Part shown: positions 8,774 through 14,322 of the stretch, piece by piece
Numbering within the stretch: position 1 is the stretch's first letter
How the letters are laid out: the number at the start of each line of letters is the position of its first letter
DNA from: an uncultured Mycoplasmatota bacterium
GTDB lineage: Bacteria > Bacillota_I > Bacilli_A > RF39 > UBA660
DNA length: 64,000 nt
Direction of reading: 5' to 3'
Assembly (NCBI GenBank): GCA_946498975.1
Contig: CAMMQC010000004.1
Span: 1,950-65,949 of the forward strand
Made by a program: the position numbers and the translations under genes
Notes under the pieces: model-generated
The model's database searches: none
What the model saw: the letters and a program-made list of their open reading frames with translations, nothing else
What the model was told of the DNA's origin: nothing

Positions 8774-11170
8774 CTATTTAACAACTATATTTACTATTTT
8801 ACCTCTGATAACAATGATCTTAACTATTTCTTTGCCTTCAGTAAATTTCTTTACATTTTCTTGGTCTAAAGCTTTTTCTTTAACTACTTCTTCACTATCA
8901 TTAACATTTATTGTTATAGTAGCACGTACTTTACCATTTACTTGGACTGCAATTGTTTTTTCAGTTTCTACAAGTTTAGACTCATCATATGTAGGCCATT
9001 TTTCATATGCAATAGTTTCTTTATGTCCTAATAGTTGCCAAATTTCTTCAGAAATAAATGGTGCGACAGGATTTAATAATTTTATAAAATCTTCAGCATA
9101 TTTATGTGGAAAACATTCTTCTTTATAGACTTCATTTATAAAAATCATCATTTGGCTAATTGCAGTATTGAAATTTAAACTTTCATAATCATCAGTAACT
9201 TTTTTTACAGTCTTATTAAATATAAAATCTAAATTAGGGTTTTCTTGTTCTACTATTTTATCACTATTATATAGTCTCCATATTCTGTCCAAGAATTTTT
9301 GTGCACTTTCAACTCCATTATTATTCCATGGTTTATCTGCTTCTATTGGTCCCATAAACATTTCATATACTCTAAGAGTATCTGCACCGTATTTTTCTAT
9401 TATATCATTAGGATTTATTGAATATTTAGGGTATCTTTTACCCATTTTTATACCATTTTCTCCTAAAATCATTCCTTGATGAACTAATTTTTGAAATGGT
9501 TCTTCTGTAGGAGCAATATTTTTTTCATATAAATATCTATTCCACATTCTTGAATATAGAAGATGGCCTACCGCATGTTCTGGTCCACCAACATATAGAT
9601 CTACTGGCATCCAATGTTTTAATAATTCTGGATTCCCTATTTCCTTTTCATTTTGTGGATCTATATATCTAAGAAAATACCAACTTGATCCAGCTGATCC
9701 TGGCATAGTTGATGATTCCCTTGTAACTTTTTTACCATGATAAGTAGTATTTATCCAGTCTGTCTTCTTTTGTAGTGGAGAAGCACCTGTCTTACTAGGA
9801 GTATAATCATCTAACTCAGGTAAAATCAATGGCAGATCATCATCATCTAATGCATATGGTGTCATATTTTCATCATAAACTATTGGTATTGGCTCACCCC
9901 AATATCTTTGTCTAGCAAAAATCCAATCTCTTATTTTATAACTTATTTGTCGATGCCCTAATTTATTTTTTTCTAAATATTGGATTGTTTTTTCTATAGC
10001 TTCTTCATTTTTATTAATTCCTTCTAGAAGCGGAGAATTTATATAATTTCCTGAACCGATGTATGCTTCTTTATCTATATTACCTCCTTCAATTATAGGT
10101 ATAATCTCTAAGTTATACTTTTTAGCAAATTCATAATCTCTTTCGTCATGTGCAGGTACTGCCATAATAGCTCCTGTACCATAGCCAACTAAAACATAAT
10201 CACTTATCCATATAGGCACTTTTTTATTAGTTAATGGATTTATAGCATAGGCTCCTGTAAACACACCTGTTTTTTCTTTGTTTAATTCTGTTCTTTCTAA
10301 ATCTGATTTTCTTTCACAGTTCTCCTTATATTTAAGAACCTCTTCAAGTTTTTCTTTACTAGTAATTTCTTGAACAAGTGTGTGTTCTGGTGCTAAAACA
10401 CAATATGTAACTCCAAATATAGTATCAGGCCGTGTTGTGAATACAGATATTTTTTTATCAGAATTTTCAATAGTAAATTCTATTACAGCTCCTTCAGATT
10501 TACCAATCCAATTCCTTTGAATTTCTTTAGTTGAATCGGGCCAATCTAAGTCGTTTAATCCTTCTAATAATTTATCTGCATATTTTGGAATATCTATAAC
10601 CCACTGCTTCATATTTTTTCTGACAACAGGATATCCCCCTCTTTCGCTCTTTCCGTTTATTACTTCATCATTAGCTAAAACTGTTCCTAACTCTTCACAC
10701 CAGTTAACTGGCATATCTTTTAAATAAGCTAATTTATCGGTAAAAAGATTTTTAAATATCCATTGTGTCCAGTGATAAAATTTGGGATCGCATGTAGAAA
10801 TCTCTCTATCCCAGTCATAAGATAATCCCATTAAATATAGTTGTTTTTTAAAAGTATCAATATTTTTATATGTAAAACTAGCTGGGTGATTACCTGTTTT
10901 TATTGCATATTGTTCTGCTGGTAATCCAAATGCATCGAACCCCATTGGATGAAGAACATTATATCCCTGCATTCTTTTCATTCTAGCAACTATATCAGTT
11001 GCTGTGTATCCTTCTACGTGTCCGCAGTGTAAAGCTACTCCTGAAGGATATGGAAACATATCTAATACATAATATTTAGGCTTACTAAAATCCCAAATAT
11101 CAGTTTTAAAAGTTTTATTTCCCTCCCAATATTTTGCCCATTTTTTTTCTATATTCTTAAAATTATACAT
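8774..11170 (-). CDS. leuS: Leucine--tRNA ligase
   Basis: 798 aa. It has the class I motifs '[16 protein letters not shown]' (HIGH-type) and 'KMGKRYPKY' (KMSKS-type). It also has the LeuRS-typical N-terminus '[14 protein letters not shown]' and a CP1 editing region. Confidence 0.97.
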
Positions 11171-11173
11171 AAT

Positions 11174-12826
11174 CTATCTCCTCTCTTTATATACCATATC
11201 ATCTGATATAGAAATCTCATTTTCATAATTTTTAGTATTTTCTTTATATTTTTTTATTTCATTAATTATGTTCTTAACAAGTTTTGTTGCTTCTTCTTTA
11301 TCAAAAAATACTGATATTGGATATATTTTTAAAGCTCCTAAGCTTATATTTGTTCCATTATATTTATAACTTCTGGAAGAAGTGAAAGTAAAATTAATTA
11401 AATTATTCTTTGCTCTATTGAGTATAAATTTACTAAAATCAACATTGTATTTTTTTATAAATTCTATTTCCGCTAATGGTAATTTAATTATTTCCTCTAT
11501 TGAAAGATTTTTATATCGTGCTGGTTTTATAATAAAAAACGTAACTAAGCCATTTGACCTGTTGTTAATTACACATACCCCTTCTTCTTTTGATAATAAC
11601 TCTCTAATACGATAAGTTCCTTCAAACATATTAATATATATTTCTTGAAAGCCTTTAATACCTAATGACTTTAAACATACAAGTGCTCCAATTGCTCCAC
11701 TACTTGATCTAGTTAGCTCTAAAGTTGAGTTATATGGATTATAATTTCCATAGTGTAAGTCTTTTAATTCTTTATTTTCTGTACTATTTAATAAGGAAAA
11801 ATCATTATTGCTTTTAACCATAAACAAGCTTGAGATGTATGGACAAAAACCAGTTTTATGAAAATCAATACCAACTGAATCAGCATATTTTACTTCTAAA
11901 GCGTATTTTTTTAATTCCATGATTGGTTTTAATGCTTTTTTGGCTGTATGAAAATCCTTAAAAAATAATAATATCCATCCTAGTACAAAATCAACGTGAA
12001 TATGGGGAGAATAATTTAATTTATATTTTTTTATTATTCTTTTATTTAAATCGTATATTTCTTTTATAGGGTCTATAATTAAATCATTTGTACTGCCACC
12101 ATTTAAATTATAACCTAGAAAAATCTTTCCCTTTTCTATATTTTCTTGAATTGTTTTTTCAGCTTCTTCTATATTAATTTGACCATTTGATAAGCAAGAA
12201 ATTTCTATACAATTATCTGAACCTATTCCCAACCAGTCACACACTTGGTAATGACAAGGGTGTGCATGCTTACTTGTAATCATAAAGTATTTGTTTGGGC
12301 TACAGCCACTTTTGCTTGTAGTATTATCGGCTTTTTTCAAAGCTATTTTTGTAGCATAAAGATTCGTACCCTTTCCACCAAATGTAAAAATTCCTCTACT
12401 TTTTTTGTAATCCCAATCCATTAAATCAGACATATATTTTATAACTTCAAATTCACTTGCAATTAAATATCCTGCATAGGTATCTTGAGCAAAATTTGGA
12501 TTAAATAAATTTGTATAAGCAACTGTAGCTGTTGATAATAAATTTACAGGTGGAATTACATTAATCATTGTACTAGGATTATTCCAGTTTGGTATGCATT
12601 GGTATAAATAAGATATTTCTTCAAAAACATCTTCAGGCTTTTTTGAATTATAATTTAGTTTTTTGTCTTTTATATAATCTTGATAATTTAAATCAAAGTT
12701 TCCTTTTGTAAAAGGAAAACTAAAATTATAATATTTAGAATTTATTTCATCTATTAATTTAATATAGTTATTAAGTTTGTTAACATTACTATTTTTATAA
12801 GTACCAAAATAAATATCTTTTTTCAT
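11174..12826 (-). CDS. PLP-dependent group II decarboxylase-like protein (substrate unknown)
   Basis: 550 aa. 'GIFTFGGKGTNLYATKIA', 'HVDFVLGW' and 'DSVGIDFHKTGFCP' line up with the Gly-rich loop, the HVDAA motif and the PLP-lysine (HK) motif of the Pyridoxal_deC family. The stop is 3 nt from the leuS ATG. Confidence 0.6.
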   Translation of the reverse strand: MKKDIYFGTYKNSNVNKLNNYIKLIDEINSKYYNFSFPFTKGNFDLNYQDYIKDKKLNYNSKKPEDVFEEISYLYQCIPNWNNPSTMINVIPPVNLLSTATVAYTNLFNPNFAQDTYAGYLIASEFEVIKYMSDLMDWDYKKSRGIFTFGGKGTNLYATKIALKKADNTTSKSGCSPNKYFMITSKHAHPCHYQVCDWLGIGSDNCIEISCLSNGQINIEEAEKTIQENIEKGKIFLGYNLNGGSTNDLIIDPIKEIYDLNKRIIKKYKLNYSPHIHVDFVLGWILLFFKDFHTAKKALKPIMELKKYALEVKYADSVGIDFHKTGFCPYISSLFMVKSNNDFSLLNSTENKELKDLHYGNYNPYNSTLELTRSSSGAIGALVCLKSLGIKGFQEIYINMFEGTYRIRELLSKEEGVCVINNRSNGLVTFFIIKPARYKNLSIEEIIKLPLAEIEFIKKYNVDFSKFILNRAKNNLINFTFTSSRSYKYNGTNISLGALKIYPISVFFDKEEATKLVKNIINEIKKYKENTKNYENEISISDDMVYKERR

Positions 12827-14066: not shown

Positions 14067-14288
14067 AATACTCCTCCTAACAAAAATAGATTCCTATTAA
14101 CAAGAACGAGTTAAACCCGTGGTACCATCTTGCTTCATAGAAATCTATGCACTTTAAAAGTTATATCGGACTTATCCGTAAATGTTTAAGGTTATCAAGT
14201 TCAAAAAGCTATTATGTTTGTTTCCACCAACCACAAACTCTCTATAGAAATAGGTCTTTTTTACTACTACAACCACATTTAAAATCTA
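14067..14288 (-). promoter_or_regulatory. T-box riboswitch leader, probable Leu (CUU) specifier
   Basis: On the minus strand the Stem I distal motifs are AGAGAG (14243..14238) and GGTTGGTGGAAA (14232..14221). The specifier region is GAA-CUU-G, immediately 5' of the Stem I closing helix GAUAACC (the codon is at 14199..14197). The Stem III hairpin is CATAG-attt-CTATG. The T-box sequence is AGATGGTACCACGG (14130..14117), whose UGGU fits an A73 discriminator. Confidence 0.75.
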
Positions 14289-14293
14289 GTATT

Positions 14294-14322
14294 ATTATAC
14301 GAAATATTAAAGCTTAATGCAA
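14294..14322 (-). promoter_or_regulatory. Sigma-A promoter for the T-box/leuS operon
   Basis: On the minus strand: TTGCAT (14322..14317), a 17-nt spacer, then TATAAT (14299..14294). Confidence 0.6.

Follow-up and report, generated by a model that had tools for sequence, protein, structure and literature searches.

The 64,000-nucleotide stretch of DNA analysed here (hereafter the window; contig CAMMQC010000004.1 of assembly GCA_946498975.1, from an uncultured Mycoplasmatota bacterium) carries a leucine T-box riboswitch leader followed by four genes, which encode a 120-residue membrane protein (TM120), a 283-residue nucleotidyltransferase (NT283), a 550-residue homologue of group II pyridoxal phosphate (PLP)-dependent decarboxylases (PLP550) and leucyl-tRNA synthetase (LeuRS; leuS). 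Judged by conservation and gene neighbourhood, NT283 and PLP550 represent an almost obligate, conserved, horizontally spread and unannotated enzyme pair. This module (NT-PLP) appears to be linked across phyla to the genes of branched-chain aminoacyl-tRNA synthetases, mostly LeuRS, and in the window it is predicted to stand under the control of a tRNALeu-sensing T-box.

The NT-PLP pair and its linkage to synthetase genes

A search of 5.8 billion proteins with PLP550 returned more than 500 relatives. Those that are 45-67% identical to it come from Bacilli, Clostridia, Saccharibacteria/Nanosyncoccus, a contig labelled Shapirobacteria, gut and rumen Alphaproteobacteria, Treponema and Cyanobium, and they are named, where named at all, only as 'hypothetical protein' or 'pyridoxal-dependent decarboxylase'. 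We collected 178 loci (L numbers below), called their open reading frames (ORFs) and clustered the neighbouring genes. PLP proteins with 46% identity or more were treated as subfamily A, which collapsed at 75% identity into 25 lineages. A homologue of NT283 adjoins the PLP gene in 20 of these lineages, and several of the remaining five are truncated contigs; in P0100, P0107 and L100 the two proteins are fused. A phosphodiesterase (PDE) of family PF01663 accompanies the module in 11 of the 25 lineages.

The genes found next to the module are frequently those of class Ia aminoacyl-tRNA synthetases. Such a gene lies at most two genes away in 11 of the 25 lineages and is assigned by NCBIfam family models to LeuRS in nine of them, to ValRS in one and to IleRS in one. 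The ValRS case is in Saccharibacteria, where the gene is divergent from NT-PLP-PDE, and the IleRS case is L127; in Clostridia a further ValRS gene lies five genes from the module. Additional LeuRS-linked loci are L176 (rel-NT-PLP-PDE-leuS-radical SAM-HD) and L178 (an NT-PLP fusion, radical SAM, leuS). With lineages set by sequence clustering and assumed to be independent, and genomes of about 1000 genes, such adjacency would arise by chance with P ~5e-16 for LeuRS alone (4/1000) and ~3e-15 for the three synthetases together. The gene orders include NT-PLP-leuS, NT-PLP-PDE-leuS, PLP-NT-leuS, leuS-PLP, PLP-PDE-<leuS and <valS NT-PLP-PDE (< marking the opposite orientation). Three different orders occur within a single group of LeuRSs that are 65-70% identical, and the adjacency therefore seems to have outlasted rearrangement. 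A first-pass annotation of this DNA, made from the sequence alone, had seen in the locus a hint of a leucine-linked function, and the recurrence of NT-PLP beside LeuRS, ValRS and IleRS genes across phyla strengthens that suggestion. No tRNA-Leu gene was linked to the module in 29 loci or in the window.

A comparable arrangement is found in a more distant PLP subfamily (33-43% identity), in which the PLP gene adjoins TyrRS-like genes (PF00579 plus S4) in 14 of 48 lineages; in some loci of the candidate phyla radiation it is flanked by two TyrRS paralogues. The pairing of a decarboxylase homologue with a synthetase would therefore be a family-wide theme. TyrRS-linked loci include L040, L043, L046, L052, L057, L059, L064, L068-L070, L073, L111, L116-L118 and L128-L131, among others, and their neighbours include radical SAM, B12-radical SAM, HD, carbamoyltransferase and amine-oxidase genes. 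In L043 a Tyr (UAC) T-box lies between the cluster and a second copy of tyrS.

Several loci differ from the window in their further gene content. In L177 (6688-10971), NT-PLP occurs with a RimJ/L-like GNAT, a sulfotransferase, CysD and CysN/C (PAPS synthesis), and in the Cyanobium locus L010 (4010-4807) a sulfotransferase gene is directly upstream of NT-PLP. Two PNP_UDP_1 genes (nucleoside phosphorylase/nucleosidase) lie between NT and PLP in L173 (3171-7683), where they replace the phosphodiesterase; a gene for a 200-residue P-loop protein comes next in the cluster and is also found 3' of PLP in L019-L021 and L092. Loci L102 and L104 (~9650-11110) have leuS-PLP without NT, together with a conserved protein of 474-477 residues that has an N-terminal Rossmann-like GxGxxA motif and no family match. 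The LeuRS linked to the module in L008/L037 (JBAYUY010000001.1, labelled Candidatus Shapirobacteria) is 60-65% identical to LeuRSs of Bacilli, and the locus shares leuS-recG synteny with L001, which suggests that NT-PLP-leuS was transferred as a block or else that the taxonomic label is doubtful.

We considered whether the pair is cargo of mobile elements and rejected this: a tblastn search with PLP550 gave 0 matches in 50,697 phage records, and the plasmid matches are generic decarboxylases of at most 29% identity. One Proteus match of this search falls in an unannotated stretch.

Predicted activities of PLP550 and NT283

PLP550 is predicted to be a complete homologue of group II PLP decarboxylases that retains the catalytic residues. 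It scores 60.5 bits against PF00282 (cut-off 27) over residues 65-431, and this domain is present in 120 of the 120 PLP550 homologues listed. The pair H323-K324, in which the lysine is the putative Schiff-base residue, is invariant in 27 homologues along with D279 and H189/H192, and the catalytic residues align with the SxHK, HVDAAWG and SEQSH motifs of GAD67, as expected from the first-pass reading of a 550-residue protein with group II motifs that include the HK lysine. Using its AlphaFold2 model (predicted local distance difference test, pLDDT, 85.6), Foldseek retrieved GAD65/67, CSAD, GADL1, DfoJ and the R. gnavus tryptophan decarboxylase (TrpDC), with TM-scores of 0.76-0.84 when normalised to the target and 0.66-0.73 when normalised to the query, and E values that reach 7e-23 and are still 1e-18 at rank 50. 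No curated NCBIfam equivalog came near its cut-off, the best being the diaminobutyrate (DABA) decarboxylase model with 64 bits against 900. PF00282 also takes in aldehyde synthases and lyases.

The solved group II enzymes (GAD65/67, CSAD/GADL1, DfoJ/DesA, DABA decarboxylase and R. gnavus TrpDC) share with PLP550 the PF00282 domain, the fold over the whole length, the HK lysine, the Asp that faces the pyridine nitrogen and the stacking His. They differ from it in sequence, with identities of 14-20%, and the PLP550 family has invariant motifs of its own, NWNNPGTMINVIPP and DFHKTGFCPY. The tyrosine decarboxylase (TyrDC) of tyramine clusters is likewise a distant relation, its model TIGR03811 scoring 35.7 bits on PLP550. 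The valine decarboxylase VlmD is a further member of this group (fold type I). In L062 and L142, two loci of subfamily B with PLP ORFs of ~750 residues, an N-terminal extension contains a HAD-phosphatase-like DLDGTL motif, read by eye from the sequence, which suggests a phosphorylated substrate or product.

NT283 is predicted to be a nucleotidyltransferase (NTase) of the Pol-beta superfamily. The signature G42-S43...D56-I-D58...D113 is invariant in 31-33 sequences; NT283 itself has no Pfam match; of 33 relatives, 19 have matches to PF01909 (NTP_transf_2) and 17 to PF18765, at E values up to 1e-5. These matches agree with the GS...DxD nucleotidyltransferase fold first proposed for this protein. 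Its AlphaFold2 model (pLDDT 92) has an NTase core and a C-terminal helical domain, and Foldseek ranked the uncharacterised NTase 3c18, AadA and ANT(9) highest, with TM-scores of ~0.4. AadA, ANT(9), ANT(6) and MNT share with NT283 the N-terminal Pol-beta core (GS...DxD...D) and a C-terminal helical bundle, the Foldseek probability is 1.0 for both AadA and ANT(9), and one relative has a faint match to PF04439. The resemblance to AadA and ANT(9) is one of architecture only, with TM-scores of 0.36-0.42, root-mean-square deviations of 7-10 Å and 9-12% identity, and no NCBIfam or PDB sequence match of NT283 to resistance NTases was significant. A PDB sequence-profile search gave the minimal NTase MNT as the best match (E 0.02), and profile searches against PDB, NCBIfam and Pfam found nothing specific. 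We therefore do not name an acceptor from the structure: despite the confident model, the PDB matches (TM 0.42 or less) are too distant for this. A role in a defence system was also rejected, since the PADLOC scan gave NT283 only a core-motif match to a CD-NTase model (26 bits, residues 20-81) and gave PLP550 none.

The accessory genes of the module encode a PF01663/PglZ-like phosphodiesterase, two PNP_UDP_1 proteins, a MoaA/viperin-like radical SAM protein, an HD hydrolase and a P-loop protein; the RimJ/L-like GNAT, sulfotransferase and PAPS synthesis genes accompany it in one lineage. Taken with the near-constant presence of NT, these nucleotide-handling and amine-tailoring functions imply a nucleotidylated intermediate. 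NT283 itself appears to be integral to the pathway, since it is almost always present and sometimes fused to PLP.

TM120 and the linked LeuRS

TM120 has three predicted hydrophobic helices, and no family reached its cut-off in Pfam, NCBIfam and PADLOC scans. Homologues with 37-98% identity occur in the same position only in L001/L016, L013-L015, L017 and L091, which makes it clade-specific. The leuS product is, by its domain content, predicted to be an ordinary bacterial LeuRS (TIGR00396, 1033.6 bits with a cut-off of 548) with a CP1 editing domain (PF13603, 228 bits) and HCGH as its HIGH motif. Where the canonical loop is KMSKSKGN, the LeuRSs of the window clade (residues ~574-583; also L001 and L017) carry KMGKRYP(K/E)(Y/F)S, which includes an insertion of one residue. 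Elsewhere, LeuRSs linked to the module retain KMSKS, and a 'resistant' LeuRS signature shared by the whole family was rejected because the KMGKR loop is limited to the window clade.

A leucine T-box leader upstream of the operon

The leader upstream of TM120 (Table 1) is, on covariance and motif evidence, a genuine tRNALeu-sensing T-box and a standard member of its family. An Rfam search of the minus strand matched RF00230 at 14280-14099 over the full-length model (1-219) with 97.2 bits, above the gathering score of 93 (E 4e-20). The first-pass annotation had proposed a Leu T-box with its promoter and Stem I motifs at 14067-14322, and every element that it listed was found at the position given. 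Homologous leaders score 130.6 (L017), 104.9 (L014) and 85.2 bits (L001) against the same model. In all five aligned leaders GAACUU is invariant and followed by a purine. The alternative specifier register, UUG (UUG or UUA among the leaders), also encodes Leu, and the leucine identity of the switch is therefore beyond doubt. T-box structures define a discriminator motif RRRxG-Stem III-AA (PMC7583486), and the leader conforms to it, with AAGUG-CAUAGAUUUCUAUG-AA followed by CAAGA-UGGUACC-ACGGG...CUCGU-UCUUG; UGGU of the 7-nucleotide bulge is able to pair with the A73-CCA 3' end of the tRNA. Elements TTG-A and ATATAAT of the promoter are kept in five of five aligned leaders, and the promoter was unseen by a consensus scanner because its -35 box agrees at only three of six positions.

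Table 1. Coordinates of the leader, its elements and the four-gene operon in the window
Feature	Position	Strand	Description and basis
Sigma-70-type promoter	14294..14322	-	-35 TTGCAT 14322-14317, 17-nt spacer, -10 TATAAT 14299-14294; from sequence
T-box riboswitch leader	14099..14280	-	Stem I, specifier loop, much-reduced Stem II region, Stem III, antiterminator
AGAGAG of Stem I	14243-14238	-	From sequence
Stem I motif GGTTGGTGGAAA (= GGUUGGUGGAAA)	14232-14221	-	From sequence
Specifier GAA-CUU-G	14202-14196	-	From sequence
Specifier codon CUU (Leu)	14197..14199	-	Infernal alignment
Candidate OFF-state hairpin	14082..14148	-	12-bp basal stem around antiterminator, then 4-5 U; minimum free energy fold
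Antiterminator	14101..14132	-	A1 CAAGA/UCUUG, bulge UGGUACC 14127-14121, A2 ACGGG/CUCGU; Rfam consensus structure
T-box sequence AGATGGTACCACGG (= AGAUGGUACCACGG)	14130-14117	-	From sequence
Shine-Dalgarno AGGAGG of TM120 gene	14078-14073	-	From sequence
TM120, 120-aa small membrane protein gene	13704..14066	-	ORF
NT283, 283-aa nucleotidyltransferase gene	12823..13674	-	ORF
PLP550, 550-aa group II PLP decarboxylase homologue gene	11174..12826	-	ORF
leuS, 798-aa leucyl-tRNA synthetase gene	8774..11170	-	ORF
Operon terminator, possibly bidirectional	8725..8765	-	Hairpin and T-run 3' of leuS stop; fold -11.5 kcal/mol

The layout T-box-TM-NT-PLP-leuS is found in three divergent lineages of uncultured gut Bacilli, namely the window group (L013-L015, L091), L001/L016 and L017, between which LeuRS is 73-74% identical. 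The layout with its CUU specifier was seen in five leaders, and contig CALVJB010000001.1 (isolate BRZ_PQ__bin74, an uncultured gut Bacilli metagenome-assembled genome) is 100% identical to the window over the locus. An Rfam T-box search of ten further loci (L025, L035, L031, L037, L093, L094, L102, L104, L107 and L127) found none. We therefore rejected the T-box as a general feature of the module, as the two occur together in the window clade only. It had been suggested that a gene cassette landed in the leuS leader; this fits the finding that the NT-PLP cassette exists elsewhere without a T-box, and its GC content (21.5-25% in the three cassette genes) is lower than that of leuS (30.2%) and of the window (29.4%). 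The simplest history would be that a mobile NT-PLP module, prone to sit by synthetase genes, became lodged in the window clade downstream of the ancestral leader of leuS and ahead of leuS itself. The lineage L001/L002/L016, which is 66% identical, has serine resolvase and recombinase genes upstream of the T-box (L001 1754-3487) and a YbaK/EbsC-like trans-editing gene (L001 10073-10543; 55 bits, below cut-off) directly 3' of leuS.

Expression platform

The split helix CAAGA/TCTTG plus ACGGG/CTCGT had been annotated as the terminator, but the Rfam alignment makes it the antiterminator. Its predicted energy is -6.6 kcal/mol alone and -10.4 kcal/mol with Stem III. The most stable conformer of the leader (-23.2 kcal/mol, compared with -10.4 for Stem III plus antiterminator) retains A1/A2 and adds a basal stem, in which the Stem III sequence AUAGAUUUCUAU (14148-14137) pairs with AUAGGAAUCUAU (14097-14086) immediately 5' of UUUU(U)G. 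This hairpin is incompatible with Stem III yet compatible with A1/A2. In a canonical T-box, the 3' strands of A1/A2 turn into the 5' strand of the terminator (PMC7583486), whereas in the window leader that option is weak and the stable alternative sequesters Stem III. Stem III is indispensable for binding of the tRNA 3' end (PMC7583486), and its sequestration is therefore a plausible OFF state. In these folds the likely terminator is the basal extension that consumes Stem III. The leader may thus be a T-box variant, possibly with a non-canonical platform, whose OFF state involves competition for Stem III and not for the antiterminator strands. When the 3' part is folded (-9.5 kcal/mol), the Shine-Dalgarno sequence AGGAGG pairs with the A1 3' strand UUCUU, so that a translational component is also possible.

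Operon layout

The spacing of the four genes is tight, with 29 nucleotides between TM120 and NT283, an ATGA overlap (-4 nucleotides) between NT283 and PLP550, and 3 nucleotides between PLP550 and leuS; the ORF coordinates agree with the earlier description of three genes that part the leader from leuS. The first-pass annotation had also seen no internal terminator or promoter. A consensus scan of the minus strand inside the operon found no further terminator-like site. Promoter-like hexamers occur at the rate of chance in this AT-rich DNA (48 found, 44.8 expected). Two AT-rich hexamer pairs that match at 10 of 12 positions fall in the PLP550 gene, also at chance expectation, and an internal leuS promoter is possible.

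The premise that a T-box ahead of other genes is out of the ordinary was overstated. About 38% of T-boxes precede non-synthetase genes, 8% precede genes of unknown or unrelated function, and control of leuS is among the most widespread uses of T-boxes (PMC2494555). Compared with the T-box leaders of leuS and other Bacillota genes (RF00230), the window leader is alike in its covariance match, Stem I motifs, Leu specifier followed by a purine, discriminator and 7-nucleotide bulge. It differs in being separated from leuS by three genes, in its weak canonical terminator and in its U-run of 4-5 nucleotides.

Comparison with decarboxylase-synthetase clusters

Decarboxylase genes that adjoin synthetase genes are known from biogenic-amine clusters. 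The tyramine cluster tyrS-tdcA-tyrP of Enterococcus has a T-box-regulated tyrS (PMC3315439), and the histamine cluster of Lactobacillus parabuchneri, hdcP-hdcA-hdcB-T-box-hisS, is a mobile island in which the extra hisS was proposed to secure histidine for translation during its decarboxylation (PMC5313534). In E. coli, lysU lies beside cadBA (cadBA-dtpC-lysU). The tdc, hdc and cad clusters and the window all keep an amino-acid decarboxylase gene (in the window, that of a decarboxylase homologue) by an aminoacyl-tRNA synthetase gene, and the tdc and hdc clusters resemble the window further in that the T-box senses the matching tRNA and the clusters are mobile or horizontally acquired. The differences lie in the partners and the wiring. 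The known clusters include an antiporter, whereas the module has an NTase partner with or without a phosphodiesterase, and only the clade-specific 120-residue membrane protein in the window. In tdc and hdc the T-box is directly ahead of the synthetase alone, whereas in the window it is ahead of TM-NT-PLP and then leuS. HdcA of lactobacilli is pyruvoyl-dependent.

A second comparison, by analogy only, is the microcin C system (MccB/D/E/F/H), which also involves nucleotidyl transfer, PLP decarboxylation and a synthetase partner. The MccE decarboxylase has another PLP fold, MccB is E1-like and not of the Pol-beta type, and no precursor peptide gene was seen at the module. Counterparts of microcin C immunity (RimL-type GNAT, S66 peptidase, HIT hydrolase) occur near the module only sporadically and are not recurrent.

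Proposed function

We tentatively propose, at what we would call a little under an even chance, that the cassette encodes an enzyme that decarboxylates leucine, or an amino acid like it, together with a nucleotidyl-transfer step, co-expressed with LeuRS when tRNALeu is uncharged. PLP550 is read as a branched-chain amino acid decarboxylase by analogy, from the Leu, Val and Ile synthetase neighbours of its family. Uncharged tRNALeu would bind Stem I and the specifier, and its free 3' end would pair with the T-box bulge and lock Stem III and A1/A2 co-transcriptionally. The more stable basal-stem hairpin with its U-run would then be prevented, and RNA polymerase would read into all four genes; without uncharged tRNALeu, the downstream strand would invade Stem III and the long hairpin would terminate transcription. 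Cytoplasmic PLP550 would decarboxylate a branched-chain amino acid, with leucine as the best candidate and a leucine-like analogue as the alternative. NT283 would spend an NTP and nucleotidylate an intermediate or product of the pathway, and in other lineages a phosphodiesterase, nucleosidase or HD hydrolase would recycle the nucleotide. The pathway and the synthetase would draw on one amino-acid pool, and selection would hold them adjacent, with synthetase dosage rising with the pathway, a rationale already put forward for hisS of hdc clusters and tyrS of tdc clusters. In the window clade the module would lie between the leuS leader and leuS, with one switch setting both. Decarboxylases usually have Km values in the mM range and LeuRS has Km values in the microM range. 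At low leucine, a decarboxylase with a mM Km would be nearly idle and LeuRS with its microM Km would capture the pool, so that, if PLP550 has the assumed mM Km, the paradox of inducing a leucine consumer in starvation would vanish.

Several observations weigh against this proposal. If PLP550 consumes leucine, its induction by uncharged tRNALeu would be no better than neutral, and neither leucine nor isoamylamine has a hydroxyl group for an AadA-like O-nucleotidyltransferase. Among the nearest solved relatives of PLP550, at 14-20% identity, the substrates are Glu, cysteine sulfinate, Lys, DABA and Trp. No nearby synthetase gene is found in about half of the lineages that carry the pair (in Clostridia, Alphaproteobacteria, Cyanobium and Treponema). 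Block inheritance could account for part of the LeuRS linkage, given that the LeuRSs within one group are 54-83% identical. Among the 178 loci no transporter family recurs with the pair, and an amino acid/amine antiporter is absent. As for the leader, the U-run is short, and only three leaders can form the basal-stem hairpin, those of the window, L014 and L015, which are the closest to one another. L017 and L001 pair otherwise, and in L001 it is the T-box sequence that pairs with GGUAUCAUCUU ahead of a U-run. Finally, a single transcript across the four genes is inferred from their spacing only.

Alternative explanations

A different role for the same chemistry would be the making or destruction of a nucleotide-linked, leucine-like antimetabolite, a mimic of the aminoacyl-adenylate that acts on LeuRS. 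The neighbouring synthetase would then be the target or a resistant copy, and the T-box would serve as a sensor of LeuRS inhibition, comparable to spare synthetases under T-box control; spare synthetases that are induced on starvation are known. More generally, NT-PLP, with or without the phosphodiesterase, would be a system for small-molecule control, endogenous or defensive, of tRNA charging at branched-chain synthetases from Saccharibacteria to Bacilli, wired here to a T-box that would register the consequent fall in charged tRNALeu. We consider the antimetabolite, and equally this wider version, unlikely, though not negligible. The core and accessory enzymes do handle nucleotides or tailor amines (AadA/ANT(9)-like NTase, PF01663/PglZ-like phosphodiesterase, PNP_UDP_1, radical SAM, HD, GNAT, sulfotransferase), an S66 peptidase gene is 3' of leuS in L178, a HIT gene is near the Saccharibacteria locus, two TyrRS paralogues flank the PLP gene in the distant subfamily, and the distribution of the pair is patchy, as after horizontal transfer, with low GC. 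Enzymes of the MccE, MccF and MccH types detoxify aminoacyl-nucleotide antibiotics, and MccE has a PLP decarboxylase domain. However, the GNAT, S66, HIT and sulfotransferase neighbours each occur in one lineage and belong to common families, and the linked synthetases are in housekeeping surroundings (rpoA-rplQ; elsewhere pheST, rel, recG) and look like the ordinary copy. Module-linked LeuRSs have no active-site signature in common, KMGKR being confined to the window clade; linkage to ValRS and IleRS is easier to reconcile with a common pool of substrate than with one target; and these habitats are not known to harbour a natural LeuRS inhibitor of such a type. Slightly less probable still would be an ordinary biogenic-amine locus, in which PLP550 is a Leu/Val decarboxylase that yields isoamylamine or isobutylamine for pH or energy homeostasis and NT283 is a passenger. 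The complete group II fold and residues, the adjacency of the cognate synthetase that is typical of such loci, and the gut and rumen habitats would all be in keeping with it, but no antiporter or transporter is conserved with the pair, an NTase that is almost obligatory and sometimes fused to PLP is no passenger, and the T-box of tdc and hdc loci controls the synthetase only, whereas that of the window precedes the decarboxylase gene too.

The remaining alternatives question the link to leucine or to small molecules. The cassette could be unrelated to leucine (for example, a system for envelope decoration or polyamine-like synthesis) and merely inserted in, or inherited with, a strongly expressed housekeeping operon, which we think about as improbable as the biogenic-amine locus. 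This would account for the roughly half of lineages that have no nearby synthetase, for a cassette GC below that of leuS and for the resolvase and recombinase genes that adjoin the L001 locus, and phospho-amine decoration pathways are also known to use PF01663 enzymes and NTases. Against it stand the LeuRS, ValRS and IleRS adjacency, found with varied orientation and gene order in 11 of the 25 lineages (P ~1e-15 if lineages are independent), and the parallel TyrRS linkage in the sister subfamily. Least probable, in our estimate, is that NT283 modifies a macromolecule, either by AMPylating PLP550 or LeuRS (in the manner of GlnE or MNT, with the phosphodiesterase as eraser) or by extending the 3' end of tRNALeu. 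Such an activity would give the NTase a role even though leucine has no hydroxyl, the NT-PLP fusions are compatible with a regulatory domain, the best PDB profile match (E 0.02) is MNT, an antitoxin and minimal NTase that AMPylates proteins, and the Foldseek matches include CCA-adding enzymes and TUTases. These matches are weak and confined to the common catalytic core, though, no tRNALeu gene is linked to the module, and the accessory nucleosidase, radical SAM and sulfotransferase genes point to small-molecule chemistry.

Neighbouring genes and other leaders in the window

The locus lies just downstream of rpoA-rplQ and ribosomal protein operons. On the minus strand at 14323-15183, a gene encodes a 286-residue protein in which only TPR repeats were recognised, and its stop codon abuts the -35 box of the T-box promoter. 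At the other end, an ORF of ~56 codons (MKVKIFDYEDESDLQKAMNEF...; 8503-8675, minus strand) is located between the leuS terminator and a convergent FemAB gene. Two FemAB-family genes (368 and 218 bits) are found around a MurJ/Wzx-type flippase gene at 4064-8303, convergent to leuS, and these neighbours recur in L014, L015 and L091. FemAB proteins are aminoacyl-tRNA-dependent transferases of peptidoglycan branches. In the ribosomal protein region, Rfam identified an L10 leader (63079-63192, minus strand, 50 bits) and an S10-Clostridia leader (30547-30645, minus strand, 35.9 bits, barely over gathering).

Implications

T-box control, the pairing of decarboxylase and synthetase genes, and T-box-regulated synthetases in Tyr and His decarboxylase clusters are already known. 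Our searches of the literature on leucine decarboxylase, valine decarboxylase, a Saccharibacteria decarboxylase, and an NTase with a PLP decarboxylase and LeuRS found no description of the NT-PLP pair, and no Leu, Val or Ile counterpart of the tdc, hdc or cad loci has been described. New here are a strongly conserved and hitherto uncharacterised module of NTase and decarboxylase homologue, which keeps company with branched-chain synthetase genes in bacteria that range from Saccharibacteria to Bacilli, the capture of this module by a Leu T-box, and an expression platform that may be non-canonical.

The organisms that carry the module are mostly genome-reduced and host-associated, and very distant from one another. 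Its retention in genomes of ~1 Mb argues for an important function, and its recurrent LeuRS, ValRS and IleRS neighbours provide a concrete substrate hypothesis. Should the module yield a branched-chain amine, or such an amine conjugated to a nucleotide, these bacteria would be a gut and rumen source of isoamylamine-type metabolites, and the coupling of nucleotidyl transfer to decarboxylation would be a new enzymatic step. The position of the pair beside Leu, Val or Ile synthetase genes in many unrelated bacteria suggests a pathway, so far undescribed, that involves branched-chain amino acids.

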